Shown here in pieces: positions 1,426-45,404 of a stretch of DNA of 46,037 bases. This stretch comes from a phage, in the sequence record PZ445465.1; one strand, 5' to 3'. Under the pieces are notes generated by a model. That model was not told where the DNA came from and ran no database searches. It was given only the letters and a program-made list of their open reading frames with translations. Every line of letters starts with the position of its first letter. The stretch's first letter is position 1. Made by a program: the position numbers and the translations under genes.

Positions 1426-1501
1426 ATCCGCATAACCACACTTGACCAATCTACACCGAGCGCATAGTATAATCTACATCATGCTTACCGGAGATATCAC
1501 T

Positions 1502-1708
1502 ATGCGCAGCTATGCAGGATTCACACAGGAGGAAAAAGAGCAGGTTTATTCACTGGCTCGGGCTGGTGTGCCTGATGATGTGATTTGCCGTCGGTATGAC
1601 ATCGACGAGGATTTCCTGCTGCGCGTTTTGGATGACGTTTTCGTTAACCTGCAGGAGAAGCGCGGGTACAAGGGTATCTGCTGCAAGAATGATTTTTTGA
1701 GAGGGTGA
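1502..1708 (+). CDS. hypothetical protein
   Basis: ATG at 1502 preceded by GGAG (1490-1493); first gene after terL; track ORF 1442..1708 trimmed to the RBS-supported start. Confidence 0.5.
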   Translation: MRSYAGFTQEEKEQVYSLARAGVPDDVICRRYDIDEDFLLRVLDDVFVNLQEKRGYKGICCKNDFLRG

Positions 1709-1710
1709 TT

Positions 1711-1914
1711 ATGAGGGGTTTTGTAAGAGATTTCCTGTTTATTGGCATTAAGTACACCATTGCACTGGTGATTGCTGTTCCGCTTATCTGGTTGATTAGA
1801 TGGGAGGAGCCAAGTATTGATGACATTATAAACTGGCAGGTTTTCAGACTTGTTATCGGCTTGTGGATTATTTCAGCTATTGCCGCATGGTGGATTAATC
1901 ATGTTCAGAAATAA
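1711..1914 (+). CDS. small membrane protein, about two predicted TM helices
   Basis: ATG 1711 after GAGGGTG; hydrophobic segments IALVIAVPLIWLI and LVIGLWIISAIAAWWI. Confidence 0.5.
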   Translation: MRGFVRDFLFIGIKYTIALVIAVPLIWLIRWEEPSIDDIINWQVFRLVIGLWIISAIAAWWINHVQK

Positions 1915-2308
1915 ATTAAAGAAAATAATCCGCGATGCTGCGGATAAGAAGTACACCAAAAAGATTGACATATCATTTATCGACTGCACTGGACTGTACA
2001 ATCACGCATGCCACCTGAATGCAGTGAACCGTGCACGGGATGGTAGTTCGTGCGCAGTGGTTGAGGTGGTTATGATTAATGATGATGGCGCAACAGCGCA
2101 TTACATCAATATGCAGTCAGACGGCGCATACATCGACTACACGCTTGGATGGCACTGGTCTGGTGCTGATTACCGGTTTGTGCGGTTTGTTCCGTTTACT
2201 GAGTGGCCCGATATCACAGGATCGTTAAGCAAACTGAAAGCTGAACTGTGTAAGCCAGTGGCTAAATGGCAGAGGTTATTGATGGTAACTGATGGTGAAC
2301 TTTGTTGA
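1901..2308 (+). CDS. hypothetical protein
   Basis: in-frame ATG at 1901 inside track ORF 1850..2308; overlaps the upstream gene end by 14 nt. Confidence 0.45.
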   Translation: MFRNKLKKIIRDAADKKYTKKIDISFIDCTGLYNHACHLNAVNRARDGSSCAVVEVVMINDDGATAHYINMQSDGAYIDYTLGWHWSGADYRFVRFVPFTEWPDITGSLSKLKAELCKPVAKWQRLLMVTDGELC

Positions 2309-2316
2309 GGTGAGTG

Positions 2317-2490
2317 ATGAAAATCGAAGGTGATTACGGGCAGCATATTATGGTTGATAAGGATTTCAAGTATGGTAACGACCTATTAGTAGTTAGGCAA
2401 ACTGGTGATGTAATCGTCGTTGCAATTGAGCAAGCAGAGCAGCTTATCGAAGTCCTGCAACGCTGGGTTAATGGTGAGGAGATTGAGTGA
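2317..2490 (+). CDS. hypothetical small protein (57 aa)
   Basis: below the 60-aa cutoff of the ORF track; ATG 2317 preceded by GAGGTGAG; its stop overlaps the next start as TGATG. Confidence 0.4.
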   Translation: MKIEGDYGQHIMVDKDFKYGNDLLVVRQTGDVIVVAIEQAEQLIEVLQRWVNGEEIE

Positions 2491-2675
2491 TGAGCGTTTA
2501 TTTTATTCATGCTGAAGTGCTTAATGGTGGTGCTATTGTCGCAAAAATATGTGCTGTTTCTACTGCATCTGACCCAGAAAGAGCATTTGATATGTTTTTT
2601 AATTGCGACAGGGTGAAAGGCCACGAAAGCAAAGGTCGTGATGTTGTAATTGATAAACTGGAAAAGGTGGAGTGA
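2490..2675 (+). CDS. hypothetical protein
   Basis: ATG 2490 overlapping the upstream stop (TGATG); track ORF 2487..2675. Confidence 0.45.
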   Translation: MSVYFIHAEVLNGGAIVAKICAVSTASDPERAFDMFFNCDRVKGHESKGRDVVIDKLEKVE

Positions 2676-2836
2676 TGGCACTATTCTGGTCGTTCTGGAT
2701 TCCACTTAATTTTATGTTCTGGTGGGCTATGGCTGCCGGAGTGAATGAACCAAGCAGGATACATTTCATGGTTGGCTCATTTTTCGCTGTGGTAACTGGT
2801 ATTGTGCCATGCTTGTTGTATCAATATTTCAAATAG
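2675..2836 (+). CDS. small membrane protein (53 aa)
   Basis: unlisted short ORF; ATG 2675 overlaps the upstream TGA; Trp/Phe-rich hydrophobic sequence; RBS AAGGTGGAG. Confidence 0.4.
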   Translation: MALFWSFWIPLNFMFWWAMAAGVNEPSRIHFMVGSFFAVVTGIVPCLLYQYFK

Positions 2837-2846
2837 AGGTGGAGTG

Positions 2847-3095
2847 ATGATAGGGATAATTCTTACTCTTATCGTTACGGCGTTCTTTGTTTATATCCTG
2901 ATAAGACATCAGCTTGTTTATATTGCCAGAGGAAGATTCATAAACTACTTCTATACAGAAGACCATAATGGATATGCAGCCGGCAAGATATTCCATGAGT
3001 CGCTACCAAGCTACGATGAGATGCTGTGGAAATTCTGGGTGTGGCCTCTGTCAAAATTCTATCCGGCGTACAGAAATCGAAATCGCAATAAGTGA
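2847..3095 (+). CDS. small membrane protein
   Basis: ATG 2847 after GAGGTGGAG; TM segment IGIILTLIVTAFFVYILI; followed by a terminator. Confidence 0.5.
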   Translation: MIGIILTLIVTAFFVYILIRHQLVYIARGRFINYFYTEDHNGYAAGKIFHESLPSYDEMLWKFWVWPLSKFYPAYRNRNRNK

Positions 3096-3105
3096 CCATG
3101 CTATA

Positions 3106-3135
3106 ATCCCATCCAACGTGATGGGATTTTTTATT
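3106..3135 (+). terminator. rho-independent terminator
   Basis: hairpin TCCCATC-CAACGT-GATGGGA followed by TTTTTTATT. Confidence 0.55.
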
Positions 3136-3143
3136 GGTGACAT

Positions 3144-4556
3144 ATGTCAAAAATTGATGCATTAAACGCCTATATACGCGACCGCGTGGCGAACAATAAC
3201 CGGGCGCTTCAGCAGCAGCGGCTTTGTGCTGGCGGGAAGAATCTGGACCAGAAACGTGAGTTCATGTGGAAGGAACTGGGCTACCCGCAGGAAATAACCG
3301 CCGAGATGTTCCGCTATGCATACGAGCGACATCCAGCCGCCGCCGCTGGCATTAACCGCATTATTAATAAATGCTGGCAGAAATACCCAGAAGTGGTTGA
3401 GGATGGCGAGGATGACAAGAACTCAACGTCGTGGGAGCTGTCCATCAACGACATGATGAAGCGCGCCTACCCGTTCATCAAGGAGGCTGACAAGCGCAAC
3501 GCCATCAACCGCTATTCCGCTGTTATCCTGCAAATCCGTGACGGCAAACAGTGGAGTGAACCGGTAGACATCACCAAAACACGCCGCATTAAAGATAAAT
3601 CCATTGTTCGCTTTATCCCAGTATGGGAAGAGCAACTCCGCGTCAGCGCATGGAATAACGATGAAACAAGTGAAGACTACGGCATGCCTGAGATGTACGA
3701 ATATCAGGAAAGCGCCGTAGAGGATTTCGATAGCGACGGCAAGCCTGAGCGTTCCGTGCAGATTCATCCTGATCGCATTATCATTCTGGCAGAGGGTAGC
3801 TTCGATGGCAGTATGTTCAGTGGCATCCCGATGCTACGTGCTGGCTACAACAGCCTTATCGACATGGCTAAGGTTTCCGGTAGTTCAGCAGAAGGCTTCC
3901 TGAAGAATGCCAGCCGTCAACTGGCTGTTAACTACACGAAGGACAACGTAACGCCAGCAAGCCTTGCACAGTCAATGGGTGTATCTCAGGATGAGCTTAT
4001 TGACATCATGAATGACAATATCGAGATGCTGAATTCTGGCATTGACGCTGCACTATTTAGCATGGGCGCCGAGACTCAGGTGTTATCCGTAACGCCAGCT
4101 GACCCGAAACCAACATGGGAAGTGGCTGCCAACCAGTTCGCTGCATCAATGGCGCTTCCGTTCACCGTCATTTTCGGGCAGCAAACCGGACGCCTTGCGA
4201 GTGATGAAGACAAGATGCAGGAGGCGATGACTGCCAAGCAGCGCCGAGAAACATGGGTGGATTATGTTATCTCAATGTTCGTTGAGCGCATGATTCAGTT
4301 CGGCATCGTCGATAAAGCACCGGCAAATGGCTACAAGGTTAAGTGGGACGACCTGCTTGCTCCATCAGAGCTGGATAAGGCGGAGTTGCTGTCTAAGCTC
4401 GCCACTGCGAACAAGTCGTTCTTTGATGCTGGTCAATCTGCGTTGCTTACCGTCGATGAGGCTCGCGGCATGGTTGGTATGGAGCCGATTGAACTTGATG
4501 AAAGTTATCGCGAAGACACGCCACCGGAAGATGAAAATGAAGATACTCCGGTTTAA
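3144..4556 (+). CDS. portal protein (putative)
   Basis: 470-aa ORF directly upstream of a Mu F-like head morphogenesis gene; acidic C-terminal tail; position and size typical of portal. Confidence 0.7.
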
Positions 4557-4620
4557 CGCAAGACTTCCGCAGCCGCGCATATCGCAGAGCCTGACCGACC
4601 CGTTAGGCGCTGCAACCCGC

Positions 4621-5487
4621 ATGTCGAAGATGGACAAGGTGATAACGCGCAAATATAAGCAACTCAGGACTCGTGCGCTTGAGTTGTTTCGCACCATTCC
4701 GCATAGTCAGACTAACGCAGAATCAAGCGGTCTGTATTTCTATGATTTCAGTAGTGCGCGCGCCGCTACTTTCATGGATGAGTTGCAGGCGCTGATTGAC
4801 GAGATTCTGCTGGAAGGTGACGACTTCAGTCACGGCAGGATGTGGGCCAATGTGTTCATCGGTGATGCGTATCAGGCAGGAACGCAGAAGGCCAACTCTG
4901 AACTATCAAGCCTGTCTCCGGTTTATGCCGAGCAGAGGCCTATTGCCGCGATACTCTACAGTGAGCCATATCTGAATCGGCTGCGGCTTGCGTATACAGC
5001 TGGTTACTCGGACTGGCGAGGATTGAGTGATTACTCACGCCAACAACTGGCATCCGTCATTATGGAAGGCATTGCCCGTGGTGCCAATCCTCGAGATGTT
5101 GAAGCTGATATCGTCAAGCGTGTTGATGTATCTCATAGCTACGCGAAACAGATAGCACAGACTGAAATCACCGGAACGCTGCGTCAGGCTAACAGAAGAG
5201 AAGTCATTGAGGCGCGCGAGGAATTAGGAATTGAAACGGTGATGCTGTGGCAATCGGCATTAATGCGCACGACACGCCAGACTCACGCGGCGAGACATGG
5301 AAGGTTTTACACGCCAGAAGAAATTGATACGTTTTATAGTGAAGTTGCTAACCGCAGGAATTGTCACTGTGCGCAAACTCCGGCGTTATTAATGGATGGG
5401 AAACCAGTCATTCTTGAGTCATCACAGGAAAGGCTTGATAAGCAGCGCGAGGCATGGCAATCAGCAAACAAAAAGCCCTCTAAGTGA
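4621..5487 (+). CDS. head morphogenesis protein (Mu F / SPP1 gp7-like, putative)
   Basis: start set at ATG 4621 after the portal stop; the track ORF's upstream extension overlaps portal; position and size typical of the family. Confidence 0.55.
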   Translation: MSKMDKVITRKYKQLRTRALELFRTIPHSQTNAESSGLYFYDFSSARAATFMDELQALIDEILLEGDDFSHGRMWANVFIGDAYQAGTQKANSELSSLSPVYAEQRPIAAILYSEPYLNRLRLAYTAGYSDWRGLSDYSRQQLASVIMEGIARGANPRDVEADIVKRVDVSHSYAKQIAQTEITGTLRQANRREVIEAREELGIETVMLWQSALMRTTRQTHAARHGRFYTPEEIDTFYSEVANRRNCHCAQTPALLMDGKPVILESSQERLDKQREAWQSANKKPSK

Positions 5488-5500
5488 GGGCTTGGTTTTA
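5474..5500. terminator. bidirectional rho-independent terminator
   Basis: hairpin AGCCCTC-TAAGT-GAGGGCT flanked by A-run and T-run, between convergent genes. Confidence 0.6.
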
Positions 5501-5571
5501 TCTTATGAGCATACACAGAACGAATATTATTATCGCATAGCACAATATCTCTACGACGCTGAATATTGTCT

Positions 5572-6180
5572 TTAATCATCAAGTTTCACGCCGGGAATTT
5601 TGCCTGCTGCGATGGCTTCATAAATTAGCTTAGCCTCATCCTCGCGCTTGTAATCTTGCGCTACCATTTCTAATACCGCGCAGATAGATTCAAGTACAGC
5701 CTCATGCTTCCTTTCTGCTTCTGTGCGAAATGGGATGAAAACATCCTTATTGGATGGGGTTATTGCGTAGTAAATCTCACCAGATGGTCTGATAACTATT
5801 TTTTCGCCATCAAGACCAATAACCTTGACTTTTCCCCATGACGTTCCGTTGCTGATATACTCACATTCACACCCAACTGGCGGCAGTCCTTCTCCGTTCC
5901 ATGCTGAATTTTTCGATGCTGCGAGCGCTGCTTTGTATTGCCAATAGGTTACTATCGACTCCTTATGGTCGGAAGATAATGGCGTAGCCCATTCTTCTCC
6001 ATACCAGAAATGCACAAGGCTATTGCCAGTGTGGTGTTTCCATGAGAACCCTTCGTAGTGTGGGTCATTCGTGTCCCATACGCACAGTGAACCGTCATTA
6101 TCTTGAGTAATTGACAGCGCGTTTTGAGGCCACCCACCACGCTTAGGCAATTCTTGAACTAACAGGTCGATAAGTTTCAT
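5572..6180 (-). CDS. hypothetical protein (202 aa)
   Basis: ATG at 6180 with GGAGA RBS; last gene of a leftward four-gene cassette; no recognised domain. Confidence 0.6.
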   Translation of the reverse strand: MKLIDLLVQELPKRGGWPQNALSITQDNDGSLCVWDTNDPHYEGFSWKHHTGNSLVHFWYGEEWATPLSSDHKESIVTYWQYKAALAASKNSAWNGEGLPPVGCECEYISNGTSWGKVKVIGLDGEKIVIRPSGEIYYAITPSNKDVFIPFRTEAERKHEAVLESICAVLEMVAQDYKREDEAKLIYEAIAAGKIPGVKLDD

Positions 6181-6192
6181 TTTTGTTCTCCG

Positions 6193-6408
6193 TTAATAAT
6201 TTGGCTTTACGTCTTTCATTGTTAGTGGCTTCCATCCACTTGCGATTGCAATATCAATACAATCCTCAAGCGTTTCAGCTTTTATTGGCTCACCAACTTC
6301 ACTATCATCAAATTTTCTCTGTATTTGATAGCCATCTACGACATAAAGAATCTCTACAGAACCATGTAGTGTGTGCATCGACTCAAGCCATTGCAGGTGG
6401 TAGCTCAT
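6193..6408 (-). CDS. hypothetical protein (71 aa)
   Basis: ATG 6408 with AGGGGG RBS; ATGA overlap with the upstream gene. Confidence 0.55.
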   Translation of the reverse strand: MSYHLQWLESMHTLHGSVEILYVVDGYQIQRKFDDSEVGEPIKAETLEDCIDIAIASGWKPLTMKDVKPNY

Positions 6409-6701
6409 TTTGTTCCCCCTAATGCCTTATTAACCGCAGCACGCGCATTATCTAGAGCGCGGCGCTTACTTGATGTTGTCCAGACTTTGCCGTCTGCAGA
6501 ATCGTAGCATTCAATCATTTGCTGCGTAGCAATAATCAATTCGGAAATAAGCATGTCGCGATATGCTAACTCAGCAGCAATAGCTGATTTTGAGTGCAAT
6601 GATTCAGAGCTCATGGCGCCAACATGCTGTGAATAAAAGCCACCAATTTCATCAAGGATATCTATATCCCGCTCTGCATACAGATTATTGCTGTCAGTCA
6701 T
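6405..6701 (-). CDS. hypothetical protein (98 aa)
   Basis: start moved to ATG 6701, which has a GGAG RBS; track ORF 6405..6725. Confidence 0.5.
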   Translation of the reverse strand: MTDSNNLYAERDIDILDEIGGFYSQHVGAMSSESLHSKSAIAAELAYRDMLISELIIATQQMIECYDSADGKVWTTSSKRRALDNARAAVNKALGGTK

Positions 6702-6859
6702 TTGATATACTCCATAATCTCGCATTCACGCATCTGCACCAGACTAAATGGCGCAACCACTTTGCCGCATGGGCGGATTTTGATTTGCTCAAGGCCGAAC
6801 ATTCCGCAGCGTCCGTTTTCTTTGAATTTGACCATTACCATAATTTCTTCCTCACTCAT
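6698..6859 (-). CDS. hypothetical small protein (53 aa)
   Basis: unlisted ORF MSEEEIMVMVKFKENGRCGMFGLEQ...; stop overlaps the next start as ATGA; weak RBS. Confidence 0.3.
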   Translation of the reverse strand: MSEEEIMVMVKFKENGRCGMFGLEQIKIRPCGKVVAPFSLVQMRECEIMEYIK

Positions 6860-6889
6860 CGTTTGATGTAGATACTATGCACCACCACT

Positions 6890-6920
6890 CAATCTACGTC
6901 AATAGCCATTGTGATAGAAT
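6890..6920 (+). promoter_or_regulatory. promoter region for the lysis genes: motif CAATCTACGTC plus extended -10-like TGTGATAGAAT
   Basis: motif at 6890-6900; TGTG-ATAGAAT at 6910-6920; strong RBS AGGAGG and ATG 6947 downstream; region is divergent toward the leftward cassette. Confidence 0.4.
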
Positions 6921-6946
6921 TAATCATTATTTGAACAGGAGGCAGA

Positions 6947-7225
6947 ATGAAACTATCGCAACGCGGCATGGAGGTGTTTGGAATTACCGATGCCGTAGAT
7001 ATATCGCCTTACATCACCACTGAGACAACACAGAATCAGTTTGATGCGCTGACAAGCCTTGCCACCGACATCGGCATTGACTCGTTCCGCAAATCAACGC
7101 TTCTGAAGAAACACAATCTCCGCTGCTTCTCATGTGTCGTCGCGCATTTCATCGTGTGGGGTGAGAAGACTGGCGACAAAGCAAAACGCAAGGCTGAAAA
7201 AGAGGTTTACTGGTATGGCTATTAG
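6947..7225 (+). pseudogene. truncated GH24 (T4/P22-type) lysozyme remnant, C-terminal portion only
   Basis: 92-aa ORF containing QNQFDALTSLATDIGIDSFRKSTLLKKHN, the conserved GH24 C-terminal lobe motif, but lacking the N-terminal catalytic segment; overlaps the intact endolysin start. Confidence 0.5.
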
Positions 7226-7679
7226 CAAAAACATGAAGGCGTTTCTGGATATGCTGGCGTACAGCGAGGGCACTGATAACGGGCGGCAGAAAACCAATAA
7301 TCATGGTTATGATGTGATTGTTGGCGGCTCACTGTTTACCGACTATTCCGATCACCCGCGCAAGCTGATTAGCCTGCCTAAGCTGGGCATCAAATCCACT
7401 GCCGCCGGGCGCTATCAGGTGCTGGCTAAATTTTATGATGCGTACAAAAAGCAACTGCGCCTGCCTGACTTCTCCCCCGCGTCACAGGACGCTATCGCAA
7501 TGCAACTAATCCGTGAATGCAAAGCCACCGCCGATATTGAGACTGGTCGCATTGCTGATGCTATCCATAAATGCCGCTCCCGCTGGGCTTCATTACCGGG
7601 CGCTGGCTATGGTCAGCATGAGCAGAAGCTGGATAAGTTGATTCAGGTATACAAAGAGGCTGGCGGAGCTGTGGCATGA
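7215..7679 (+). CDS. R: endolysin, lambda R-type lytic transglycosylase
   Basis: MKAFLDMLAYSEGTDNGRQKTNNHGYDVIVGG...DYSDHPRKL...WASLPGAGYGQ closely matches lambda R; start ATG 7215 within track ORF 7134..7679. Confidence 0.85.
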   Translation: MAISKNMKAFLDMLAYSEGTDNGRQKTNNHGYDVIVGGSLFTDYSDHPRKLISLPKLGIKSTAAGRYQVLAKFYDAYKKQLRLPDFSPASQDAIAMQLIRECKATADIETGRIADAIHKCRSRWASLPGAGYGQHEQKLDKLIQVYKEAGGAVA

Positions 7680-7915
7680 AAAAGCTAAGCAACTGGCTGC
7701 TCGGCGCGTGGATTTCATTCTGCTCACTATTGCAGCTATGGCCTGATGCAATGATGCACGTGTGGGTAATGATGCCGGACGACCTGAAAGCGGCGCTACC
7801 GCCAATCGTGGTCAAAGGTGTAAGCTACTCCATCATGCTGGTTGGTATTCTCGGAAAAATGCACGGCATGAGGAAGGAGAACCGGAGGCTGCGCAATGAT
7901 GTCAATTCTCGCTAA
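7676..7915 (+). CDS. lysis-associated membrane protein (possible holin)
   Basis: 79-aa ORF between endolysin and spanins; ATGA overlap with the endolysin stop; two hydrophobic segments and a charged C-terminus. Confidence 0.35.
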   Translation: MKKLSNWLLGAWISFCSLLQLWPDAMMHVWVMMPDDLKAALPPIVVKGVSYSIMLVGILGKMHGMRKENRRLRNDVNSR

Positions 7916-8387
7916 ATACTGGCGACCACTGGCAATTATTATAATTGTTGTCTCTGGCGCGTTGTGGGCGCGTAGCGAAATCATCAGCTACGGCGACCAA
8001 CGATACGCAGAAGGCAAATCCCAAGCAATCGCCGAACAGAAGGCCGCAGACGAACAAGAGGAGCAACGACGCAATGCAGAACTGCAAAAGATTCAGGCTG
8101 ACGCACAGCAAAGGATTGACGCTGCGCGCAATGATGCTGTCAATGCTGCTGCTAAGTCTGGCAGGTTGCAGCAACAGCTCGCAAATATCCGCAAGCAGCT
8201 CGTCGGATATTCCACCGCTGAGTCCATTGGCAATCCAGCCGCAGAAACCGGAGTTTTGCTTGGAGACGTGCTCGGCAAATCTGTCGAAAGAAATCGACAA
8301 CTGGCAGATTATGCTGACAGGGCAAGAGAGGCAGGATTAGCGTGTGAGGCGCAGTATAATTCGCTGCGTAATAAAAAAGCCCCGTGA
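7896..8387 (+). CDS. Rz: i-spanin (Rz-like)
   Basis: N-terminal TM LAIIIIVVSGALW followed by a coiled-coil region rich in Q/A/E; follows the endolysin. Confidence 0.7.
   Translation: MMSILAKYWRPLAIIIIVVSGALWARSEIISYGDQRYAEGKSQAIAEQKAADEQEEQRRNAELQKIQADAQQRIDAARNDAVNAAAKSGRLQQQLANIRKQLVGYSTAESIGNPAAETGVLLGDVLGKSVERNRQLADYADRAREAGLACEAQYNSLRNKKAP
8131..8340 (+). CDS. Rz1: o-spanin (Rz1-like lipoprotein) embedded in Rz in the +1 frame
   Basis: MMLSMLLLSLAGC lipobox (LAGC) followed by a Pro-rich mature region; lies entirely inside the Rz ORF. Confidence 0.6.
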   Translation: MMLSMLLLSLAGCSNSSQISASSSSDIPPLSPLAIQPQKPEFCLETCSANLSKEIDNWQIMLTGQERQD

Positions 8388-8403
8388 TGGGGCTTGTGTT
8401 TAA
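8376..8403. terminator. bidirectional rho-independent terminator
   Basis: hairpin AGCCCC-GTGAT-GGGGCT flanked by A-run and T-rich tract, between convergent genes. Confidence 0.6.
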
Positions 8404-8411
8404 TTGGTTTG

Positions 8412-8555
8412 TTAAGATTCTTCCCGCTGCTTCCACATCTGTTTCAGCTGGAAATAAGCATACGCTTCATCACCATCTTTCGCATTGCGCTCCATTTGCT
8501 CACACCATGCCGATGGTTTTGGCGGCTCACTCTGCTGGCAATGTTGTTGGCTCAT
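8412..8555 (-). CDS. hypothetical small protein (47 aa)
   Basis: ATG 8555 with GAGGA RBS; overlaps the upstream gene by 29 nt; uncertain. Confidence 0.3.
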   Translation of the reverse strand: MSQQHCQQSEPPKPSAWCEQMERNAKDGDEAYAYFQLKQMWKQREES

Positions 8556-8832
8556 TAACAGATTCCTCAACCGCAGATTCAACGATGCGCACCAGTGAGC
8601 ACTCAAGATTCGGTGCATTGTAATTACCAGCCAGAAACAGAACACTGCCGGTGCTGATTAATACCTGCTTTGCGTTCGCCTGTGACAGATTCTGCACGAT
8701 GAATTGCGCTGTTTCCGTGCCGATTTTTAGCACTGCGCTGCCGTCGCTGTTCAGTGATACCGGTTGTGCTGAAGTGTCGGTAATATTGGTGTAGCTCGCG
8801 TTTCGTTGCGCGATTGTTATGTCTGTGAACAT
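8527..8832 (-). CDS. hypothetical protein (101 aa)
   Basis: ATG 8832 with AAGAGG RBS; part of a leftward cassette. Confidence 0.5.
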   Translation of the reverse strand: MFTDITIAQRNASYTNITDTSAQPVSLNSDGSAVLKIGTETAQFIVQNLSQANAKQVLISTGSVLFLAGNYNAPNLECSLVRIVESAVEESVNEPTTLPAE

Positions 8833-8833
8833 A

Positions 8834-9055
8834 TTAGCCTCTTACGTTTAATTTGATTTTTCCATCCACGTCGCGTGATGCACACTCAACAGTGATTGTT
8901 AACTTGGTGATCTCTTCGACGTCTGCATCAAGAATCAAGCGGACGCAACCACCAACTATTCTACCATCCTGATCAACAACGCGAATTTTATCATCGACTC
9001 TTTCAACGTGGAGCCAAACCTTTTCTTCATCACAGCCATTATTGAGAATTGACAT
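8834..9055 (-). CDS. hypothetical protein (73 aa)
   Basis: ATG 9055 overlaps the upstream stop (TAATG). Confidence 0.5.
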   Translation of the reverse strand: MSILNNGCDEEKVWLHVERVDDKIRVVDQDGRIVGGCVRLILDADVEEITKLTITVECASRDVDGKIKLNVRG

Positions 9056-9486
9056 TATTTAATCTCCAGTTCTTTTGCGCGAATTGCGCTGTCAATGATG
9101 TCTTGCAAATCCTGTTCGCGCGATTTATGTCCGCGCTCGCCAGCCTGTAATGCCTTCTTGATTAAGTGCTGCAATGCAGGGTTGGTGACATTCCACGCCA
9201 TGAGCACATCGTATACGTCAACAAATATACCCGGCTTAATCTCGTGCAGGTATTTGTTATCAGCCTCAGGAGCGCCAATGCAATCATTGAGGTCTTGTTC
9301 GTCGGTAATTGGCTCGCGGTATGCAATAACAACATCCCCGCGACCCTCAATCACTTCAATGCGATCAGCATAATATTTGCTTAGATAGAAAATCTCACCA
9401 GTCCTTTCTGACTTAACTACAAGATAAGCCGCGTTATGGCCAGCAAAATCATCCTCATAACCTTTCAGATATTTCCACTTTTTCAT
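9055..9486 (-). CDS. hypothetical protein (143 aa)
   Basis: ATG 9486; ATGA overlap with the upstream gene; no confidently recognised domain. Confidence 0.55.
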   Translation of the reverse strand: MKKWKYLKGYEDDFAGHNAAYLVVKSERTGEIFYLSKYYADRIEVIEGRGDVVIAYREPITDEQDLNDCIGAPEADNKYLHEIKPGIFVDVYDVLMAWNVTNPALQHLIKKALQAGERGHKSREQDLQDIIDSAIRAKELEIK

Positions 9487-9677
9487 TTCATCGTCACCCG
9501 ATTATTTTCATCAACATTAAAATTCGCACGAATCAAATCATACATGTCATTTTTAGGCATATCAGCCAGCGCCACATAGCAACGGGCAAAGTAGCGAACA
9601 TCACGGAGTGTCAGCGGCTGCCGCTTCTCCACAATGCTGGTGATAATGTCCATCGGCTCGCGTCGTGGTCTTGGCAT
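9483..9677 (-). CDS. hypothetical protein (64 aa), first gene of the leftward cassette
   Basis: ATG 9677 with AGGAG RBS, immediately downstream of the divergent regulatory region. Confidence 0.5.
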   Translation of the reverse strand: MPRPRREPMDIITSIVEKRQPLTLRDVRYFARCYVALADMPKNDMYDLIRANFNVDENNRVTMK

Positions 9678-9700
9678 ATTTACTACTCCTTCTCGAAAAA

Positions 9701-9749
9701 CATCTTGACGTTTCTACATCACTTAGTCAATACTTATTGACGTAGATTG
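9701..9749. promoter_or_regulatory. divergent regulatory region with inverted motif copies
   Basis: GTTTCTACATC (9710-9720) and TTGACGTAGATTG (9737-9749, reverse orientation) between divergent gene starts 9677 and 9777. Confidence 0.4.
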
Positions 9750-9776
9750 TACCACAACGGAAAAGGTGATGTGGAA

Positions 9777-12457: not shown

Positions 12458-12488
12458 TCGACCACAAACTAACCGTGGAGAGTTAACC

Positions 12489-16423: not shown

Positions 16424-17220
16424 TAAACGGACCTCATGAATGCTTTAATGAATTCTGCTGCGACTTGTGGAACTATGGCATTGCCATAACCGCGCAATCG
16501 TCCCACTCTTGCGGATACCCCATGAGTTGCCTCGCAAAATCCGCCTGGTATGACTCTAGTTTCCTTATCTGCTCCATGGTTGGGTTTCCATGAATCCCAT
16601 AAACATGAAGCCACATCTGGCGATAAAGAGTATCGTTCCTGAATTTTCCGTCCTTTCTGTAAAATGTCTTGCTGAGATCCCCGTAATCCTTCCATCCTCG
16701 CGCCGTTGGTGTCGCCCATCCTCGCGCCAAAGATGATTCTTTTCCTTTCCTGTGGAGAGCCGACGCTGCAAGCTGGCAATACTGACGCCCCGCAGGCGTA
16801 GCCTTTGTCTTCCAGGTTAAGGAATACAAAATCGAGCCAGTGCTTCCCAATTGCTGCTGCAACCTGCTCTCCAAACAGCAATTCAGGCTTGCACTCTCTG
16901 ATGAGCCTGAGAAATGCTGGGGCAAGGTGTCGATCGTCGTCAAATCCGAGAGACTTACCGGCAACGCTAAACGGCTGGCAAGGTGGTGATCCTGTCCAGA
17001 GTCGAGTGCTTTCTGGTATTCCTGCCAGCTGGAGTGCAAGGGGCCACCCTCCGATTCCGGCAAAGAAGTGACACTGTGTAAATCCTTCCAGGTCTGAAGG
17101 GGTGACTTCGGTGATTGATCGTTCATCGACATATCCGTAAGGAATTAGTTTATTGTTAATTAATTCACGCAGCCATGCCGCTGCGCCCTTGTCCCACTCA
17201 TTGTAATAGTGGACCATCAT
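16423..17220 (-). CDS. DNA (cytosine-5) methyltransferase
   Basis: motif I FFAGIGGW; motif IV GSPPCQPFSVAG (canonical PCQ motif); ENV-like FGEQV. Confidence 0.75.
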   Translation of the reverse strand: MMVHYYNEWDKGAAAWLRELINNKLIPYGYVDERSITEVTPSDLEGFTQCHFFAGIGGWPLALQLAGIPESTRLWTGSPPCQPFSVAGKSLGFDDDRHLAPAFLRLIRECKPELLFGEQVAAAIGKHWLDFVFLNLEDKGYACGASVLPACSVGSPQERKRIIFGARMGDTNGARMEGLRGSQQDILQKGRKIQERYSLSPDVASCLWDSWKPNHGADKETRVIPGGFCEATHGVSARVGRLRGYGNAIVPQVAAEFIKAFMRSV

Positions 17221-18029
17221 CACATCTTCTCCAGAATTGCCATCACCTCGTGAATATCAGCAACAGGAATCTGGATAAACTCCTCATTCTCTGCCACTAC
17301 ATGACCAGCAGGAAGAATAACGTGGTCAGCTGGCTTCAGTAACTCAATCAGTCGGTCTACTGGCTTAATCTTTTTCGACTTAAGCACCTTCGCCGTTACC
17401 TTATCCTTGCCTTGCGCCTTCGCTTCTTCGACTGCCTCGTCGATAACTTTAACCGCATCATCGCCATGTTCGCGAGTTACTGCTACGGCATTTGCATAGC
17501 TGATTTGCCCTGCACTGATTCGCGCTTTTACTTCGGCTGGCACATCACCCAGTGACAGGTGCATCTGCACGTCAGAAACTGAGCGCCCTACCTTCTTGGC
17601 GATTTCCTCGTTGGTCCAGCCAAAACCCTTCAGTCGCGTGTAAGCCTTTGCGCGTTCAAACGGGTCAAGCTGCTTACCCTGACTGGACGACACCATGAAG
17701 GCGATTTTATCTGCTTCGCCTCCTGTGAAATCCTTGCACTCAATACGAACAATTGGTGCGCCACGCTCAATGGCACGCAACGCTCCGAGATAGCGATGCT
17801 GACCATCAAGAATGCGGATTCCCTTCTCGTCTGGAATAACTGTTAATGCTGGCAATGGCTGACCTGACTCCCAGCACTGCGCGAAATACTCCACATGCTG
17901 CTCATCTGCCTCACGGATGTTGTATCCCGGCTCAAGATAGATTTGCTCAACTGGAACGAGATATGTTTTGTTAACAGCGATGCCGTTACGCGTTTCTTTG
18001 TCTGAATAGATTTTGCTGAGTGTTTTCAT
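17220..18029 (-). CDS. ParB-like nuclease domain protein
   Basis: ILDGQHRYLGALRA (the ParB/Srx DGQHR motif); start set at ATG 18029. Confidence 0.7.
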   Translation of the reverse strand: MKTLSKIYSDKETRNGIAVNKTYLVPVEQIYLEPGYNIREADEQHVEYFAQCWESGQPLPALTVIPDEKGIRILDGQHRYLGALRAIERGAPIVRIECKDFTGGEADKIAFMVSSSQGKQLDPFERAKAYTRLKGFGWTNEEIAKKVGRSVSDVQMHLSLGDVPAEVKARISAGQISYANAVAVTREHGDDAVKVIDEAVEEAKAQGKDKVTAKVLKSKKIKPVDRLIELLKPADHVILPAGHVVAENEEFIQIPVADIHEVMAILEKM

Positions 18030-18030
18030 A

Positions 18031-18222
18031 TCATTCACCACTTTCTTCTAACAATTGCTCATAATATGCGACGTATTCATTAGCCAGATGGTACAGGCGA
18101 TCAGCAGACTTGCGTTCTGCATTGCTTAAGTCATCAATAGACTCAATGTTGCCAATTGCATCAACACAATCATTGAAGTCTTGCTCCGTGTTACGGAATC
18201 TACAGTAGGACATGTTTGCCAT
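18031..18222 (-). CDS. small acidic protein (63 aa)
   Basis: ATG 18222 with GAGGAG RBS; high Asp/Glu content. Confidence 0.45.
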   Translation of the reverse strand: MANMSYCRFRNTEQDFNDCVDAIGNIESIDDLSNAERKSADRLYHLANEYVAYYEQLLEESGE

Positions 18223-18505: not shown

Positions 18506-18552
18506 TTGTTGTTTCTACGTCACTAACTATAAACGCACCATCAATCTACGTC
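18506..18552. promoter_or_regulatory. divergent promoter/operator region
   Basis: GTTTCTACGTC (18511-18521) and CAATCTACGTC (18542-18552); plus-strand TTGTTG-N16-TATAAA (18506-18533); lies between divergent gene starts 18485 and 18602. Confidence 0.45.
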
Positions 18553-18601
18553 AACAGGAATATGCTAAAATCATGCTAATCAAAAAACAGGAGATTTGAG
18601 C

Positions 18602-21688: not shown

Positions 21689-21733
21689 CAATCTACACCA
21701 CAAAATAATCACTGTCAACACCTGTGATATAAT
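21689..21733 (+). promoter_or_regulatory. promoter of the major tail gene: CAATCTACACC motif, TGTCAACACC, extended -10 TGATATAAT
   Basis: motif 21689-21699; TGATATAAT 21725-21733; GGAGA RBS and ATG 21770 downstream. Confidence 0.5.
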
Positions 21734-23479: not shown

Positions 23480-23529
23480 GAATCTACATCACCACCTCGC
23501 AGGTGTCAACACCACTGAGATGATATAAT
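23480..23529. promoter_or_regulatory. divergent promoter region: GAATCTACATC motif, GTGTCAACACC, extended -10 TGATATAAT
   Basis: motif 23480-23490; TGATATAAT 23521-23529; between divergent starts 23441 and 23559. Confidence 0.5.
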
Positions 23530-23558
23530 CAACATCAGTCAAATTCAGGATGCAAAAC

Positions 23559-31471: not shown

Positions 31472-31510
31472 TACAATATACATCAAATTCACAAAGGAGC
31501 ATTTATTATA

Positions 31511-36815: not shown

Positions 36816-37241
36816 TTAATCTACGTCATCCAGCAAGCCAAAATAGAAAAGTGTGGCTTTTTTTAGTTCATCAAGACCGTAAGCGATGGCTGCATAATGA
36901 CCAAGCCTGCACATCTCTGTTAGAACTGCTGATTGATCCTTGCTCACTCTGCTCTTACTTTTGTCACGGCGCTTTGCCTCAATCATTCCGCAGCAGTGGT
37001 TCGCACCCGGAGTCATTATTACGTTATCGCCTATTCCAGGCTTAACCCCCATCTTCTGGCGCTTCAGTACGAACTGGACGCGGCTGGATGTTCCTGTTTC
37101 ATTCGGGACGTGAAACCATAGCACATCAGGGAAACAGTGTTGCATCCATGTACCGTAACCCATCTGGTCAGTCTCCTCTTTTGGGCATTCGCCGCGATAA
37201 CCGCTATCAAATACCCATATACCGCTATCAAGCTGCTTCAC
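36816..37241 (-). CDS. VRR-NUC domain nuclease
   Basis: GMIEAKRRD motif; start assigned to GTG 37241 after AGGAG; no in-frame ATG near the 5' end. Confidence 0.6.
   Translation of the reverse strand: MKQLDSGIWVFDSGYRGECPKEETDQMGYGTWMQHCFPDVLWFHVPNETGTSSRVQFVLKRQKMGVKPGIGDNVIMTPGANHCCGMIEAKRRDKSKSRVSKDQSAVLTEMCRLGHYAAIAYGLDELKKATLFYFGLLDDVD
36817..36827. promoter_or_regulatory. TAATCTACGTC motif upstream of the HNH gene
   Basis: copy of the recurrent motif in the short spacer between the VRR-NUC stop and the HNH start. Confidence 0.3.
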
Positions 37242-39180: not shown

Positions 39181-39221
39181 TTGATGTTTCTACGTCAGTT
39201 AGCTTATACTCAATCTACACC
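39181..39221. promoter_or_regulatory. divergent promoter/operator between helicase and primase
   Basis: TTGATG-N18-TATACT on the plus strand with GTTTCTACGTC (39186-39196) inside the spacer; CAATCTACACC at 39211-39221. Confidence 0.45.
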
Positions 39222-39240
39222 AACAATCAAGGGTCAATTT

Positions 39241-40194: not shown

Positions 40195-40195
40195 A

Positions 40196-40225
40196 AGAAA
40201 CCCTCCATATGGAGGGTTTTTTGTT
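40196..40225. terminator. bidirectional rho-independent terminator
   Basis: CCCTCC-ATAT-GGAGGG followed by TTTTTTG. Confidence 0.6.
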
Positions 40226-42749: not shown

Positions 42750-42858
42750 ACTTACCTCCATCTCCAGTGACTCTAATTTTATATAAATAAAAAAGATATG
42801 CAATTCTAATATGTGCTGGCTGTACAGTTTGGCTAATTTTTGCTCGATTTATACCGTC

Positions 42859-43248
42859 TTTACCTGGTTTTTACCGTGCTATTTTTGATGCAACTAATTG
42901 ATTAATAAGATTTTACCGGTTTTACCGGATTTCTTAAGTGGTATTTTAATTATTAAGATTGGCAGTGTATTAATTTGATCTAATTTTAATAAACTTAAAT
43001 AAAATCAATATATTAATATGAATGAATAACTTACTTACCTCTATAGAATTTACCGGGTAAAACCGGTAACTCCTCCGCAAGCCGCGCCATTGCTGGCTTC
43101 ATTTTTACCACCTGTAGGTAAATACAGTAGTTTTTAAGTGATAATTGTTTTGGTAAGCTGTTGATTACCGGTGCTTTATTTAAAAAACCGGCATTTACCG
43201 GTATTTTGTGGAGTGATTAATAAGTGCGCAATTAGTCCTTGTTTACCA
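42859..43248. repeat. AT-rich iteron array (TTTACCGG-type repeats); candidate origin of replication
   Basis: nine or more direct and inverted copies of TTTACC(G/T)G or its reverse complement, e.g. 42859-42867, 42872-42877, 42912-42919, 42921-42928, 43049-43056 with inverted partner 43063-43070, 43105-43110/43117-43122, 43165-43172, 43184-43191, 43194-43201, 43242-43248. Confidence 0.55.
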
Positions 43249-43277: not shown

Positions 43278-43306
43278 TTGACGTAGAAACATCATTGATG
43301 TAGATT
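43278..43306 (+). promoter_or_regulatory. sigma70-like promoter TTGACG-N17-TAGATT overlapping motif copies
   Basis: TTGACGTAGAAAC (43278-43290) and GATGTAGATTG (43297-43307); GAGGG RBS and ATG 43337 downstream. Confidence 0.45.
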
Positions 43307-43336
43307 GAACTCATCGGAACAAACGAGGGTGAAGAG

Positions 43337-43614: not shown

Positions 43615-43617
43615 CAA

Positions 43618-43800
43618 ATGGCAAAGACTATCTATCGTCGCGAGAAACTGGAGCCTGAACTCGGTCACGTTGGCGCGCAAAACTTTATGAGCAAGCAGGC
43701 ACGCAATGCAATGGAATCTATACGCGTGAATCGCGTTGTGCGCGTGTTTAACGGTGAAGGTAAGCGAAGAGTAATGGATGAACTGATTATCGTATTTTGA
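43618..43800 (+). CDS. hypothetical protein (60 aa)
   Basis: AAGGAG RBS 6 nt upstream of ATG 43618. Confidence 0.5.
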   Translation: MAKTIYRREKLEPELGHVGAQNFMSKQARNAMESIRVNRVVRVFNGEGKRRVMDELIIVF

Positions 43801-43836
43801 CATCGATTCAGCAGGCTTATTTCTAATGGTGATGAT

Positions 43837-44064
43837 ATGGAAAAAGTAAAAACATACGAGTTCTGGTTTGTGCAGAACAAAATGTATGCAAGCAGGACAA
43901 TCAAGAGAGTCAGCTGGTGGAATAAGTGGTTAATCCTCTCCGGCTGCATCGTGCTGGCAAAGTGCAAATTCAAAGCGATTGACATCACTGATGAAAACGC
44001 ACTCAAAATCGCAAAGATTGTGTTTGAAGAGGATGGCTATTACGAAGAAATTATGGGGGGTTAG
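43837..44064 (+). CDS. hypothetical protein (75 aa)
   Basis: ATG 43837; internal hydrophobic segment. Confidence 0.4.
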   Translation: MEKVKTYEFWFVQNKMYASRTIKRVSWWNKWLILSGCIVLAKCKFKAIDITDENALKIAKIVFEEDGYYEEIMGG

Positions 44065-44067
44065 GGT

Positions 44068-44349
44068 ATGAGTGAAGTTAAAACGTATGCAGTAAACTGC
44101 AACGACGCGTGGCTTAATACAGATGGTGATGACATCTCTGGCTCATATGTTAAGTATGCTGATTACGCAGCTCTTCAAGCTAAATGCGATGAGCTACTTA
44201 AAGAAATTAAAAACATGCAGGACCAAGCCCTTGATGATGGATGCCGAATTACAGAGCTTGAAGAAGCCTTGCAAGATAAGCAGGCACTAATTCCTGATGA
44301 GCACGACACCACCGCTCTGCAATTCGAAAGCCTGGCTAAAAGTGAATAG
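44068..44349 (+). CDS. hypothetical acidic protein (93 aa)
   Basis: ATG 44068 after a GGGGG RBS. Confidence 0.5.
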   Translation: MSEVKTYAVNCNDAWLNTDGDDISGSYVKYADYAALQAKCDELLKEIKNMQDQALDDGCRITELEEALQDKQALIPDEHDTTALQFESLAKSE

Positions 44350-44412
44350 CCACCCATTCATATTAATTATCAGTGCGCTCTATGTGGCGCACGCTTTAGT
44401 GGAGGAATACAT

Positions 44413-44520
44413 ATGACCAGACACCAACGACGAAAGCACACCACTGGCGCTAAAATATTTCTTGCTGTTTATGTGCTGGCATTGGTAGCAGCTATCGCAG
44501 GAGTAGTGCATTATGTTTAA
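44413..44520 (+). CDS. small membrane peptide (35 aa)
   Basis: unlisted ORF with GGAGG RBS; basic N-terminus then a TM helix. Confidence 0.3.
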   Translation: MTRHQRRKHTTGAKIFLAVYVLALVAAIAGVVHYV

Positions 44521-44692
44521 CGATATCAGTGACGCAATGCAAAACATGTGGGAACGATACTGGAACAGCATGAAGACGTGTCACTACATGATGGTACAGA
44601 TAGGTAATTACATTGAGGTTGTGCCTGATACTGGTGTTCACAACATTAAGTGCATGTGTTCTACGAGGGCTTTTGCGAATGCAAACAACTAA
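44513..44692 (+). CDS. hypothetical small protein (59 aa)
   Basis: unlisted ORF with AGGAG RBS 8 nt upstream. Confidence 0.3.
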   Translation: MFNDISDAMQNMWERYWNSMKTCHYMMVQIGNYIEVVPDTGVHNIKCMCSTRAFANANN

Positions 44693-44846
44693 GCATAAAG
44701 TCTGGCAACTCGCCAAACAACACGAATTAGACGATTTCATCGCGAAGGTTGCAAAGACATTCCCTGACGCGCTTGAAGTCGTTCATGTGCAGACGCGAAA
44801 TGAAAATGCATGGTGCTACACAAAAAATCATACAAATGGTAGATGA
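44679..44846 (+). CDS. hypothetical small protein (55 aa)
   Basis: in-frame ATG inside track ORF 44613..44846; weak RBS. Confidence 0.25.
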   Translation: MQTTKHKVWQLAKQHELDDFIAKVAKTFPDALEVVHVQTRNENAWCYTKNHTNGR

Positions 44847-45273
44847 AATGAAGCTAACAAAAAAACAACGCGAAGAGCTACGCATGAAGTTCGGTGGTCG
44901 CTGTGCTTATTGTGGGTGTGAGCTACCCGAGAAAGGTTGGCATGCAGACCATGTTGAACCAGTGCTACGTAAATCTGAACAGTGCATGAAGGCAGCGGCG
45001 AAAGGGATTTTCAAGCTGAAGGCAACCGGTGAGCTATATCGACCAGAAGCCGAGCGACTGGAAAACCTTTACCCTGCGTGCGCCCCCTGCAATCTGATGA
45101 AAACTTCCTATTCCCTGGAAATGTTCAGGAAGCAGGTATCTCTTCAGGTTGCTCGTGGGCGCAAAAGCAGCATGAATTTCCGCACTGCAGAGCGTTTCGG
45201 TCTTATCGCCGTGGTGGAGAAACCAGTTGTTTTCTGGTTTGAGAAATACCAGGAAGAGAACGAAAAAAAATAA
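44836..45273 (+). CDS. HNH endonuclease (packaging-associated, putative)
   Basis: CAYCGCEL...HADHVEP...CAPCNLMK: zinc-finger HNH core; start uncertain (ATG 44836 or 44848); directly upstream of terS. Confidence 0.65.
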   Translation: MVDEMKLTKKQREELRMKFGGRCAYCGCELPEKGWHADHVEPVLRKSEQCMKAAAKGIFKLKATGELYRPEAERLENLYPACAPCNLMKTSYSLEMFRKQVSLQVARGRKSSMNFRTAERFGLIAVVEKPVVFWFEKYQEENEKK

Positions 45274-45371
45274 ATGTGTTTATGATGCTCTGTTGGCAAG
45301 CGCGATAATGATGGTGTACAATAAACGCATAACCACCATTGCTTTCACTCATATCATCACCCAACCTTTAA

Positions 45372-45404
45372 TCCGCCTTGTGCGGGTTCTTTTTTATCTA
45401 CGTC
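45372..45404 (+). promoter_or_regulatory. weak terminator-like hairpin followed by TTATCTACGTC motif upstream of terS
   Basis: CCGC-CTTGT-GCGG plus T-run (45373-45395); motif at 45394-45404. Confidence 0.3.

Follow-up and report, generated by a model that had tools for sequence, protein, structure and literature searches.

The sequence considered here, called the window, is the whole of record PZ445465.1, with a length of 46,037 base pairs (bp), and the element under study is a short motif, S-W-W-TCTAC-R-Y-C-A, that recurs at its promoters. The window constitutes the near-complete genome of a Skate-like siphovirus and, along most of its length, shares 98% identity with Escherichia phage SusanneMuster_Bas79. 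The phage is a virulent one of E. coli, and its group is described as lytic. Phages Bas77-81 are O-antigen-dependent small siphoviruses in or near the genus Skatevirus (BASEL paper, PMC11990801). Skate-like siphoviruses are common biocontrol isolates for Salmonella, Klebsiella and E. coli and are now represented in the BASEL collection, while their gene regulation is unstudied. The literature on them was found to consist of genome announcements and host-range work, with no account of promoters or of the motif, and a literature search by motif sequence gave unrelated primer matches only.

To obtain a gene map, the Bas79 annotation was carried over to the window by tblastn. The map is 95% coding, with 2,268 bases (4.9%) being intergenic, and the genome is laid out as about 12 short operons of alternating direction. 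Promoters were listed by a consensus scan that was blind to the motif, and the strong motif copies could then be placed relative to them as follows:

1447..1458, plus strand: CAATCTACACCG, in the spacer, immediately past the -35 of the rightward promoter TTGACC-17-TAGTAT (1442-1470)
1470..1481, plus strand: TAATCTACATCA, on the -10 end and +1 of the rightward promoter 1442-1470
6864..6875, minus strand: GTATCTACATCA, in the +1 region, right behind the -10 of the leftward promoter TTGACG-17-CATAGT (6902-6874)
6890..6901, plus strand: CAATCTACGTCA, its reverse complement being the -35 (TTGACG) of the leftward promoter 6902-6874
9710..9721, plus strand: GTTTCTACATCA, in the spacer of the rightward promoter TTGACG-18-AATACT (9705-9734)
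9738..9749, minus strand: CAATCTACGTCA, on the -10 (TACAAT, with TG) of the leftward promoter 9775-9746
18511..18522, plus strand: GTTTCTACGTCA, in the +1 region of the promoter that serves the ParB-like operon leftward
18542..18553, plus strand: CAATCTACGTCA, its reverse complement being the -35 of the leftward promoter TTGACG-17-TATAGT (18554-18526)
21689..21700, plus strand: CAATCTACACCA, its reverse complement being the -10 (TAGATT) of the leftward promoter TTGACA-17-TAGATT (21718-21690)
23480..23491, plus strand: GAATCTACATCA, its reverse complement being the -10 (TAGATT) of the leftward promoter TTGACA-17-TAGATT (23509-23481)
36817..36828, plus strand: TAATCTACGTCA, between two minus-strand genes, where a reading of the sequence finds the promoter spacing disturbed in the window
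39186..39197, plus strand: GTTTCTACGTCA, in the spacer of TTGATG-18-TATACT (39181-39210), the promoter running rightward into the primase gene
39211..39222, plus strand: CAATCTACACCA, at +1, right behind the primase promoter -10, and also in the spacer of the leftward promoter
43279..43290, minus strand: GTTTCTACGTCA, its reverse complement being the -35 (TTGACG) of the early rightward promoter 43278-43306
43296..43307, minus strand: CAATCTACATCA, its reverse complement being the -10 (TAGATT) of promoter 43278-43306, 17 bp from copy 43279
45394..45405, plus strand: TTATCTACGTCT, behind a terminator at 45370-45388

The original prediction had named 15 places with nearly identical 11-mers, and all 15 do carry the given words or their reverse complements. 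A weight matrix built from the sites adds one strong copy missing from that list, the minus-strand copy at 6864-6875. At a score of at least 14 the matrix finds 16 matches, compared to 0.5 in Markov shuffles, and these are divided 12 to 4 between plus and minus strand. It also gives two weak variants:

23526..23537, plus strand: TAATCAACATCA, right behind the -10 of the tail-operon promoter TGATATAAT
31474..31485, plus strand: CAATATACATCA, intergenic, upstream of the tailspike gene

The reason why the motif can coincide with promoter hexamers is seen from its reverse complement, TTGAYGTAGATTG, in which a -35-like hexamer, TTGACG, is directly followed by a -10-like one, TAGATT. Where the motif serves as the -35, the hexamer TTGAYG is invariably followed by TAGAWW, and where it serves as the -10, TAGATT invariably follows TGAYG. 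At 43278-43306, a pair of copies at a distance of 17 bp makes up a whole promoter, TTGACG-17-TAGATT, which, like TTGATG-18-TATACT at 39181-39210, had been proposed from the sequence and is an independent hit of the promoter scan. The third proposed type of element, the extended -10 TGATATAAT, was located by reading the sequence at 21725-21733 and 23521-23529. The word GTCAACACC, however, is not its upstream partner as had been suggested, but the reverse complement of the TTGACA -35 of the leftward promoters 21718 and 23509.

Half of the copies lie in a spacer or at +1. In the spacer-type promoters (1442-1470, 9705-9734 and 39181-39210) the motif stands beside the -35 in a single orientation, and a second copy is found 0-8 nucleotides (nt) past the -10, on the start site, in either orientation; copy 9738-9749, for instance, lies shortly downstream of the rightward -10 of promoter 9705-9734. 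The spacing of paired copies is 17, 23, 25 or 31 bp, again with varying orientation. In the divergent regions at 18.5 kb and 39.2 kb the promoters look back-to-back, with overlapping -10 regions and one copy per side, and copy 39186 spans also the +1 region of the leftward promoter of the replication operon. The leftward promoter 18554-18526 is the top-scoring one in bases 1-20000. Copy 18542, whose reverse complement is its -35, is at the same time located 13 nt upstream of the rightward extended -10 TGCTAAAAT (18563-18571) of the head-tail promoter. Similarly, the lysis operon has a rightward extended -10, TGATAGAAT (6912-6920), ca 14 nt downstream of copy 6890. These two rightward promoters have no -35 of their own, and the geometry is the same in the related phage GP-1. 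Finally, copy 45394 is followed after 7 nt by TGTTAAAAT (45409-45417), the extended -10 from which the packaging operon would be transcribed. The suggestion that the motif sits inside or beside sigma70-like elements is thus borne out by promoters scanned independently of it, since copies overlap their -35, spacer, -10 or +1. The operator-like placement at the -35 or in the spacer was likewise seen, and is extended here to the -10 and +1.

We now consider how far the motif departs from chance. The word TCTACGTC occurs 8 times where 0.58 is expected, a number reached in 0 of 100 shuffles, and the looser form WTCTACRYC 19 times where 2.2 is expected. Comparing intergenic with coding DNA, the enrichment check that had been proposed shows the motif to be nearly restricted to the former: of the 15 matches of WTCTACRYCA, 12 are entirely intergenic, to be compared with the intergenic fraction of 4.9% (binomial p = 8e-14). 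The other three are at 21689, inside a small annotated open reading frame (ORF) that is doubtful and probably spurious, at 36817, where the match overlaps a stop codon, and at 27439-27450, in a tail gene. The claim that all listed sites are intergenic therefore holds for most of them, the exceptions being 21689 and 36817. For 39186 and 39211 it depends on the start assigned to the primase, as both sites are inside the ORF as annotated in Bas79 with a TTG start, and upstream of the gene if it begins at the likely ATG at 39235.

On the primase itself, it can be observed that the TTG start (window 39184) would make the ORF engulf its promoter and two motif copies, and that the ATG at 39235 has AAGGG in front of it. 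From the sequence, the latter is the more likely start.

A short asymmetric word at some 13-16 copies per genome, kept in weakly related phages and with 12 of 16 copies on one strand, has statistics like those of the motifs found at site-specific single-strand nicks in virion DNA (PMC11780129). We have therefore considered that the motif marks such nicks, of the T5, tf or Rembedalsseter type, or takes part in another process at the DNA level. The nick motifs of those phages are confined (or nearly so) to one strand and occur throughout coding sequence (PMC11780129). The present copies, on the other hand, are on both strands (12 plus, 4 minus), nearly all intergenic and placed over promoter hexamers. 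Moreover, no conserved nickase candidate was found, the HNH genes varying between relatives. This explanation is consequently regarded as very improbable.

The window was next compared with four relatives, namely Salmonella phage E1 (Macdonaldcampvirus), two phages of Klebsiella, GP-1 and the Skate-like VLCpiS13a, and the E. coli phage Sa179lw (Buchananvirus). GP-1 has ca 72% nucleotide identity to the window in the replication genes, and Sa179lw has a different replication module. The motif was found in all of them:

E1 (Macdonaldcampvirus): 12 motif copies
GP-1: 12 motif copies, with 1.9 expected
Sa179lw (Buchananvirus): 16 motif copies, with 1.5 expected
VLCpiS13a (Skate-like): 13 motif copies, with 1.9 expected

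The copies occupy syntenic divergent regions, that is, those before the lysis genes, the ParB-like operon, the tail operon, the helicase/primase pair and the early region, and further syntenic copies lie upstream of the major tail gene and upstream of the packaging genes. Among the relatives, the placement of a copy within the promoter is conserved, while the orientation is variable. At site 36817, an internal leftward promoter of E1 and GP-1 (TTGCCT or TTGATG-17-TAGATT) has as its -10 the reverse complement of the motif. When 60 distinct sites from five genomes are pooled, the consensus becomes S-W-W-T-C-T-A-C-R-Y-C-A-(A), with the information confined to positions -3 to +9 around TCTAC and none in the flanks. 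This means that the unit is the asymmetric 12-bp motif itself and not a piece of a longer repeat.

Across ten orthologous intergenic regions compared pairwise between the window and GP-1, 75% of the motif bases are identical, compared to 46% of the other intergenic bases (Fisher p = 4e-13), which indicates that the motif is under purifying selection in the related phages. When 7-mers were screened without bias for an enrichment of 2.5-fold or more in each of the four genera, CTACGTC, CTACATC and CTACACC came out as top words, and in the four genomes screened no other word was returned that resembles a regulatory site. An exact 14-mer scan of IMG/VR gave mostly Skate-like contigs together with single chance matches, and was of no help in finding motif-positive phages that lack ParB. 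For promoter 21718 a counterpart exists in lambdoid prophages, with TAAATT in place of the TAGATT that in Skate-like phages is within the motif. The operator thus looks to have been superimposed there on a pre-existing, ordinary promoter.

These comparisons bear also on the possibility that the motif has no dedicated binder, its copies being either relics of a mobile or duplicated promoter cassette or blocks of homology for the shuffling of modules. The gene cassettes between motif-bearing promoters do vary among the relatives, E1 and Sa179lw have a duplicated early-promoter pair upstream of the 1502 orthologue, and a 51-bp stretch with the 43278/43297 pair is 88% identical in Sa179lw, being the sole match of a 7.4-kb replication-module query. 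However, conservation is limited to the 12 bp, with flanks that carry no information, and the difference between 75% and 46% identity requires selection on those exact bases. We judge this origin to be improbable.

A somewhat different option is that a host transcription factor or nucleoid protein common to Escherichia, Salmonella and Klebsiella binds the motif. It would account for the identical motif in phages of three host genera, and also for a viable phage that has its sites intact and its ParB-like gene deleted (see below). Nevertheless, by eye the motif does not fit the E. coli consensus sequences of DnaA, IHF, FNR, NarL, MetJ, Cra, EvgA, PhoP or sigma E/28/32/54. The closest of them is the DnaA box TTATCCACA, and in that comparison, also by eye, the critical C6 is always mismatched. 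A host factor is accordingly thought to be an outside chance, hardly above that of the cassette relics.

The reading that we favour, on balance and with a slight preponderance over all others taken together, is that the motif is a dispersed, asymmetric operator of a single phage-encoded regulator, laid over the sigma70 cores of nearly all promoters of the phage, and that the likeliest binder is the ParB/KorB-like protein of the phage. What would be expected of a dispersed operator regulon was found here, namely over-representation across the genome, concentration in intergenic DNA, overlap with promoter cores and conservation in relatives. Plain sigma70 elements alone would be conserved only in hexamers at 16-18 bp, and this is not the pattern observed. 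In particular, the invariant TAGAWW and TGAYG neighbours and the copies in spacers and at +1 are unexplained by sigma70, which argues for a separate sequence-specific binder. By analogy with known operators, the -35, -10, spacer and +1 are the classical positions for a repressor. The phage-wide regulon of one DNA-binding protein, one of the two options put forward in the original prediction, is hence supported by promoter overlap, intergenic confinement and conservation, the binder being only a candidate. The other option, a promoter architecture specific to the phage, fares less well: since 12 bp are kept without their flanks, and the position is kept with variable orientation, an operator fits better than a pure RNA-polymerase element.

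In the proposed mechanism, a regulator bound to the sites would exclude RNA polymerase, leading to global repression or to a temporal shut-off. At the lysis and head-tail promoters, that is, the extended -10 promoters without a -35, the same site is found near -30, and the bound protein could there act as an activator. One site would in this way silence an early promoter facing left and assist a late one facing right, an early/late switch of the kind known from phi29 p4. A ParB/KorB-like protein would act as a non-essential global regulator, with its own operon included among the targets.

The geometry of these promoters is also what an alternative explanation builds on, in which the motif is a positive, directional promoter element that replaces the -35 in middle or late transcription, being recognized by an activator, a MotA-like sigma-appropriation factor or a modified RNA polymerase. 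The lysis and head-tail promoters, which have an extended -10 but no -35, carry the motif 12-14 nt ahead of that -10, centred near -30, and this is seen both in the window (6890 and 18542) and in GP-1 (6000 and ca 18094). In addition, the five spacer copies (1447, 9710, 18511, 39186 and 45394) have the same orientation relative to transcription throughout, and outside the divergent regions 4-5 of 5-6 copies face the downstream gene. However, at least three classes of distance upstream of the -10 can be told apart (6-8, 12-14 and 23-33 nt), the +1 copies are in either orientation, and many copies are on good -35/-10 pairs that have no need of an activator. Furthermore, no gene for a sigma-like, MotA-like or AsiA protein or for an RNA polymerase was found in the Bas79 annotation or among 30 scanned window proteins, and in E1 the extended -10 promoter of the major tail gene is retained without the motif. 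Altogether, we consider an activator box unlikely, although it is a stronger contender than the host factor or the cassette relics.

Next, we turn to the protein that might bind the operators. The leading candidate is encoded here:

17220..18041, minus strand: gene of the ParB/KorB-like helix-turn-helix (HTH) protein, behind the motif-bearing promoter 18554-18526

A Pfam scan covered 30 window proteins and a PHROG scan ten of these. The ParB-like protein matches HTH_ParB (2.6e-11) and KorB (4.4e-6) in Pfam, as well as PHROG 1033. Both its N-terminal domain and its HTH can be aligned to structures of Spo0J, ParB, Noc and KorB; the phmmer match to Spo0J (1vz0) has an E-value of 6e-13 over residues 44-206, and KorB (8qa8) is matched too. 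The protein is 80-99% identical in E1, GP-1 and Sa179lw, and when the window is compared with GP-1 the HTH segment shows 100% identity. At the position of the CTP-binding motif GERRxRA the alignment gives D-G-Q-H-R-Y-L-G-A, in which one arginine is kept and two are replaced. No partner of the ParA/KorA kind was found in the Bas79 annotation or the 30 scanned proteins, and apart from the ParB-like and a MarR-like protein these scans (30 proteins for Pfam, ten for PHROG) gave no further HTH protein. From these comparisons, the ParB-like protein is the most likely binder of the motif.

The MarR-like protein (10682-11170) was also considered and was rejected. The versions in the window and GP-1 have no more than 37% identity and differ in the recognition helix, though the motif is identical in both phages.

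A more far-reaching version of the proposal is that a virulent siphovirus has recruited a ParB/KorB protein as genome-wide regulator, with an asymmetric 12-bp site that doubles as -35 or -10, often in bidirectional promoters. The protein would then balance leftward early against rightward late operons in Skatevirus, Macdonaldcampvirus, Buchananvirus and Roufvirus-like phages. We put this forward tentatively, as distinctly less probable than the operator reading in its general form.

There are several points that weigh against the favoured assignment. First, the motif is asymmetric, and the spacing and orientation of its pairs vary, unlike the palindromic parS, OB and NBS sites of ParB, KorB and Noc. 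No palindromic site of 13-16 bp emerged among the copies, and only the -35-adjacent subclass forms a dyad, the imperfect TGAYG-N6-CRTCA. Second, VLCpiS13a, a plaque-forming isolate, keeps only the C-terminal 60 residues of the ParB-like protein and yet has retained all 13 sites. Third, in two Jilinviruses, ep3 being one of them, the ParB-like protein has ca 50% identity and the motif is not enriched genome-wide. Fourth, the binder could be another small conserved protein, for example the 68-residue protein encoded at 1502-1708 or the DUF7540 protein at 43618-43800.

Concerning the second point, the deletion in VLCpiS13a (L127 7618-7800, corresponding to window 17220-18485) removes most of the ParB-like gene together with its upstream neighbour. 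No other isolate shares the deletion, and across the junction, which is where VLCpiS13a and GP-1 were compared, the flank is 100% identical to GP-1. The deletion is thus recent, and the retention of the sites is uninformative on binding. What the viability of VLCpiS13a does imply is that the ParB-like protein is dispensable, and so it would be at most a non-essential modulator and not an essential (late) activator.

As to the Jilinviruses, ep3 (L005 38741-38750) and ECOO78 (L130 1647-1656) each have a single TTCTACATCA in a promoter-like spacer, TTGCAA/TTGTAA-16-TATATC, upstream of the operon that encodes a ParB-like protein ca 50% identical to that of the window, in what are otherwise unrelated myoviruses. 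By our own arithmetic, a match of the TTCTACATCA type is expected by chance ca 0.65 times per genome, or roughly 0.001-0.002 times in the 90-bp region concerned, and this placement counts in favour of the ParB-like candidate. In the lambdoid phages Mulock and AH07, no motif was found close to the ParB-like genes.

The two small proteins are both weak alternatives. The 68-residue protein is predicted to be a three-helix bundle (predicted local distance difference test, pLDDT, of 82) with an invariant, acidic third helix, and Foldseek gives a non-significant likeness to the HTH domains of GerE, NarL and ArdK (E of at least 0.3). For the DUF7540 protein no structural relatives were found by sequence; the family is restricted to the same phage group and is hence not discriminating.

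Another feature with repeats was observed in the gap of 533 bp that separates the helicase operon from the early genes. It is an origin-like region (42850-43210) with ca 14 copies of TTTACC(GG) in both orientations around an AT-rich stretch. The repeat unit differs in the relatives, being GTGGGGCA... in E1 and GGGGTA/TACCCC in GP-1, and the neighbouring helicase genes differ likewise, which suggests an exchangeable initiator-iteron module. The TTTACCGG repeats of this region were tried as a target of the ParB-like protein and rejected, as they differ in E1 and GP-1 and track the swapped helicase module rather than ParB.

Turning to the remaining features of the map, the consensus scan places promoters at divergent junctions and bidirectional terminators at convergent ones. 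The latter are GC-rich hairpins with T-runs:

5473-5493: convergent-junction hairpin, terminator on both strands
8377-8395: convergent-junction hairpin, terminator on both strands
15685-15707: convergent-junction hairpin, terminator on both strands
22495-22514: convergent-junction hairpin, terminator on both strands
40195-40222: convergent-junction hairpin, terminator on both strands
33423-33442: sixth convergent-junction hairpin, called as terminator on the plus strand only

Together, the predicted convergent terminators and the motif-bearing promoters mark the borders of the transcription units. A further terminator-like hairpin on the plus strand, AGCCAaaatagaaaagtgTGGCT followed by TTTTTTT (36832-36860), lies within a minus-strand gene directly past copy 36817. 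Its segment CAAGCCAAAATAGAA is kept in E1 and present in near-identical form in GP-1, and the hairpin may stop antisense transcription.

An additional observation concerns the DNA downstream of the leftward promoter TTGACA-17-TAGATT (21718-21690), where no protein gene is present. There is instead an unannotated RNA locus of ca 650 nt on the minus strand (window 21025-21725), which ends at the terminator GGCCGCttcgtGCGGCtttatttatt (about 21044-21025). Bases 21593-21646 give a sub-threshold Rfam match to the tag-coding region of transfer-messenger RNA (tmRNA), with 28.5 bits and an E-value of 0.001 for RF04321 and 17 bits for RF01850. The tag frame is kept while its middle varies, reading ANDDVVLMAA* in the window and Sa179lw, ANEDRFLMAA* in GP-1 and ANDDLMLMAA* in a lambdoid prophage. 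Rfam at curated thresholds and ARAGORN returned nothing on the window, and no domain resembling a transfer RNA (tRNA) was found at the locus. Unannotated homologues are present in 1,205 of 5,426 complete E. coli genomes, and the one inspected is located between the Q antiterminator and holin genes.

Within this locus, a block of ca 150 nt (21139-21287, minus strand) is 97% identical to GP-1 (L003 20478-20627), compared to ca 72% for the genomes. The block, for which Rfam gave no match, folds into a multi-branched structure closed by GUUGUGGUG/CCACCACAAC, and its hairpin UGCGCA-N6-UGCGCA is changed to UGCACA-N6-UGUGUA in a prophage copy, a compensatory change. In GP-1, genes for tRNA-Thr, tRNA-Arg and tRNA-Met follow the block on the same strand.

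Returning to the motif, its significance is that it maps about a dozen transcription units and a testable regulon in these phages. The 16 sites, the one leading candidate and the natural deletion mutant VLCpiS13a, beside GP-1 which retains ParB, constitute defined material for such tests. If the ParB-like protein is indeed the binder, the branch of the ParB family that regulates transcription (KorB, VirB) would come to include lytic phages as well as asymmetric sites. To those who engineer phages, the sites show where promoters can be swapped or de-repressed.

Finally, it is instructive to compare the proposed regulon with known systems. In mycobacteriophage L5 (Cluster A), as Brown et al. are said to have described in 1997, one phage HTH protein, gp71, binds stoperators/operators of 13 bp that are asymmetric and present in about 24-30 intergenic copies. 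L5 is temperate and gp71 is its immunity repressor. The stoperators mainly block elongation and are strictly co-oriented with transcription. One copy overlaps a promoter -35. The present sites resemble them in being short, asymmetric and dispersed in intergenic DNA, with some over a -35. They differ in that the phage group is described as lytic, the sites are on promoter cores and the orientation varies. Indeed, strict co-orientation of the L5 type was not found here, as the +1 copies are in both orientations and site 36817 is antisense to its gene cluster.

The P1 C1 operators are also asymmetric. They have 17 bp and occur at 17 or more places over the promoters of many operons, and thus share with the present motif the scattering of asymmetric operators over promoters genome-wide. 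Their sequence, however, is unrelated, C1 does not belong to the ParB family, and P1 is temperate.

KorB of the IncP plasmid RK2 is a ParB-family protein that globally represses most operons, its own included, through 12 dispersed OB operators, some of them beside a -35. OB is palindromic with 13 bp, TTTAGCSGCTAAA, and the action of KorB involves KorA and CTP (cytidine triphosphate)-dependent sliding. The similarity here is that the candidate protein matches the Pfam KorB domain and KorB structures, that the sites are dispersed and that its own operon bears the motif. On the other hand, the site is asymmetric, there is no recognisable KorA/ParA partner, and GERRxR reads GQHRYL.

Two further systems resemble individual promoters. 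The phi29 p4 protein has a site at a single locus, over the -35 of an early promoter and at the -35 position of a divergent late promoter that lacks a -35, and the same dual early/late arrangement is seen at 18542 and 6890. The p4 site is nevertheless an inverted repeat at one locus, whereas a non-palindromic motif recurs here throughout the genome. The T4 MotA box, 9 bp long and asymmetric, takes the place of the -35, being centred at -30 with a good sigma70 -10 ca 12 nt downstream, which is the geometry at 6890 and 18542. Unlike in T4, no MotA/AsiA homologue was found in the annotation or the 30 scanned proteins, and most copies lie in a spacer, -10 or +1 in either orientation rather than at a fixed -30 position. 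By analogy, L5 gp71, P1 C1 and RK2 KorB would thus be the closest known kinds for the regulon as a whole, and phi29 p4 and T4 MotA the analogues for individual promoters.

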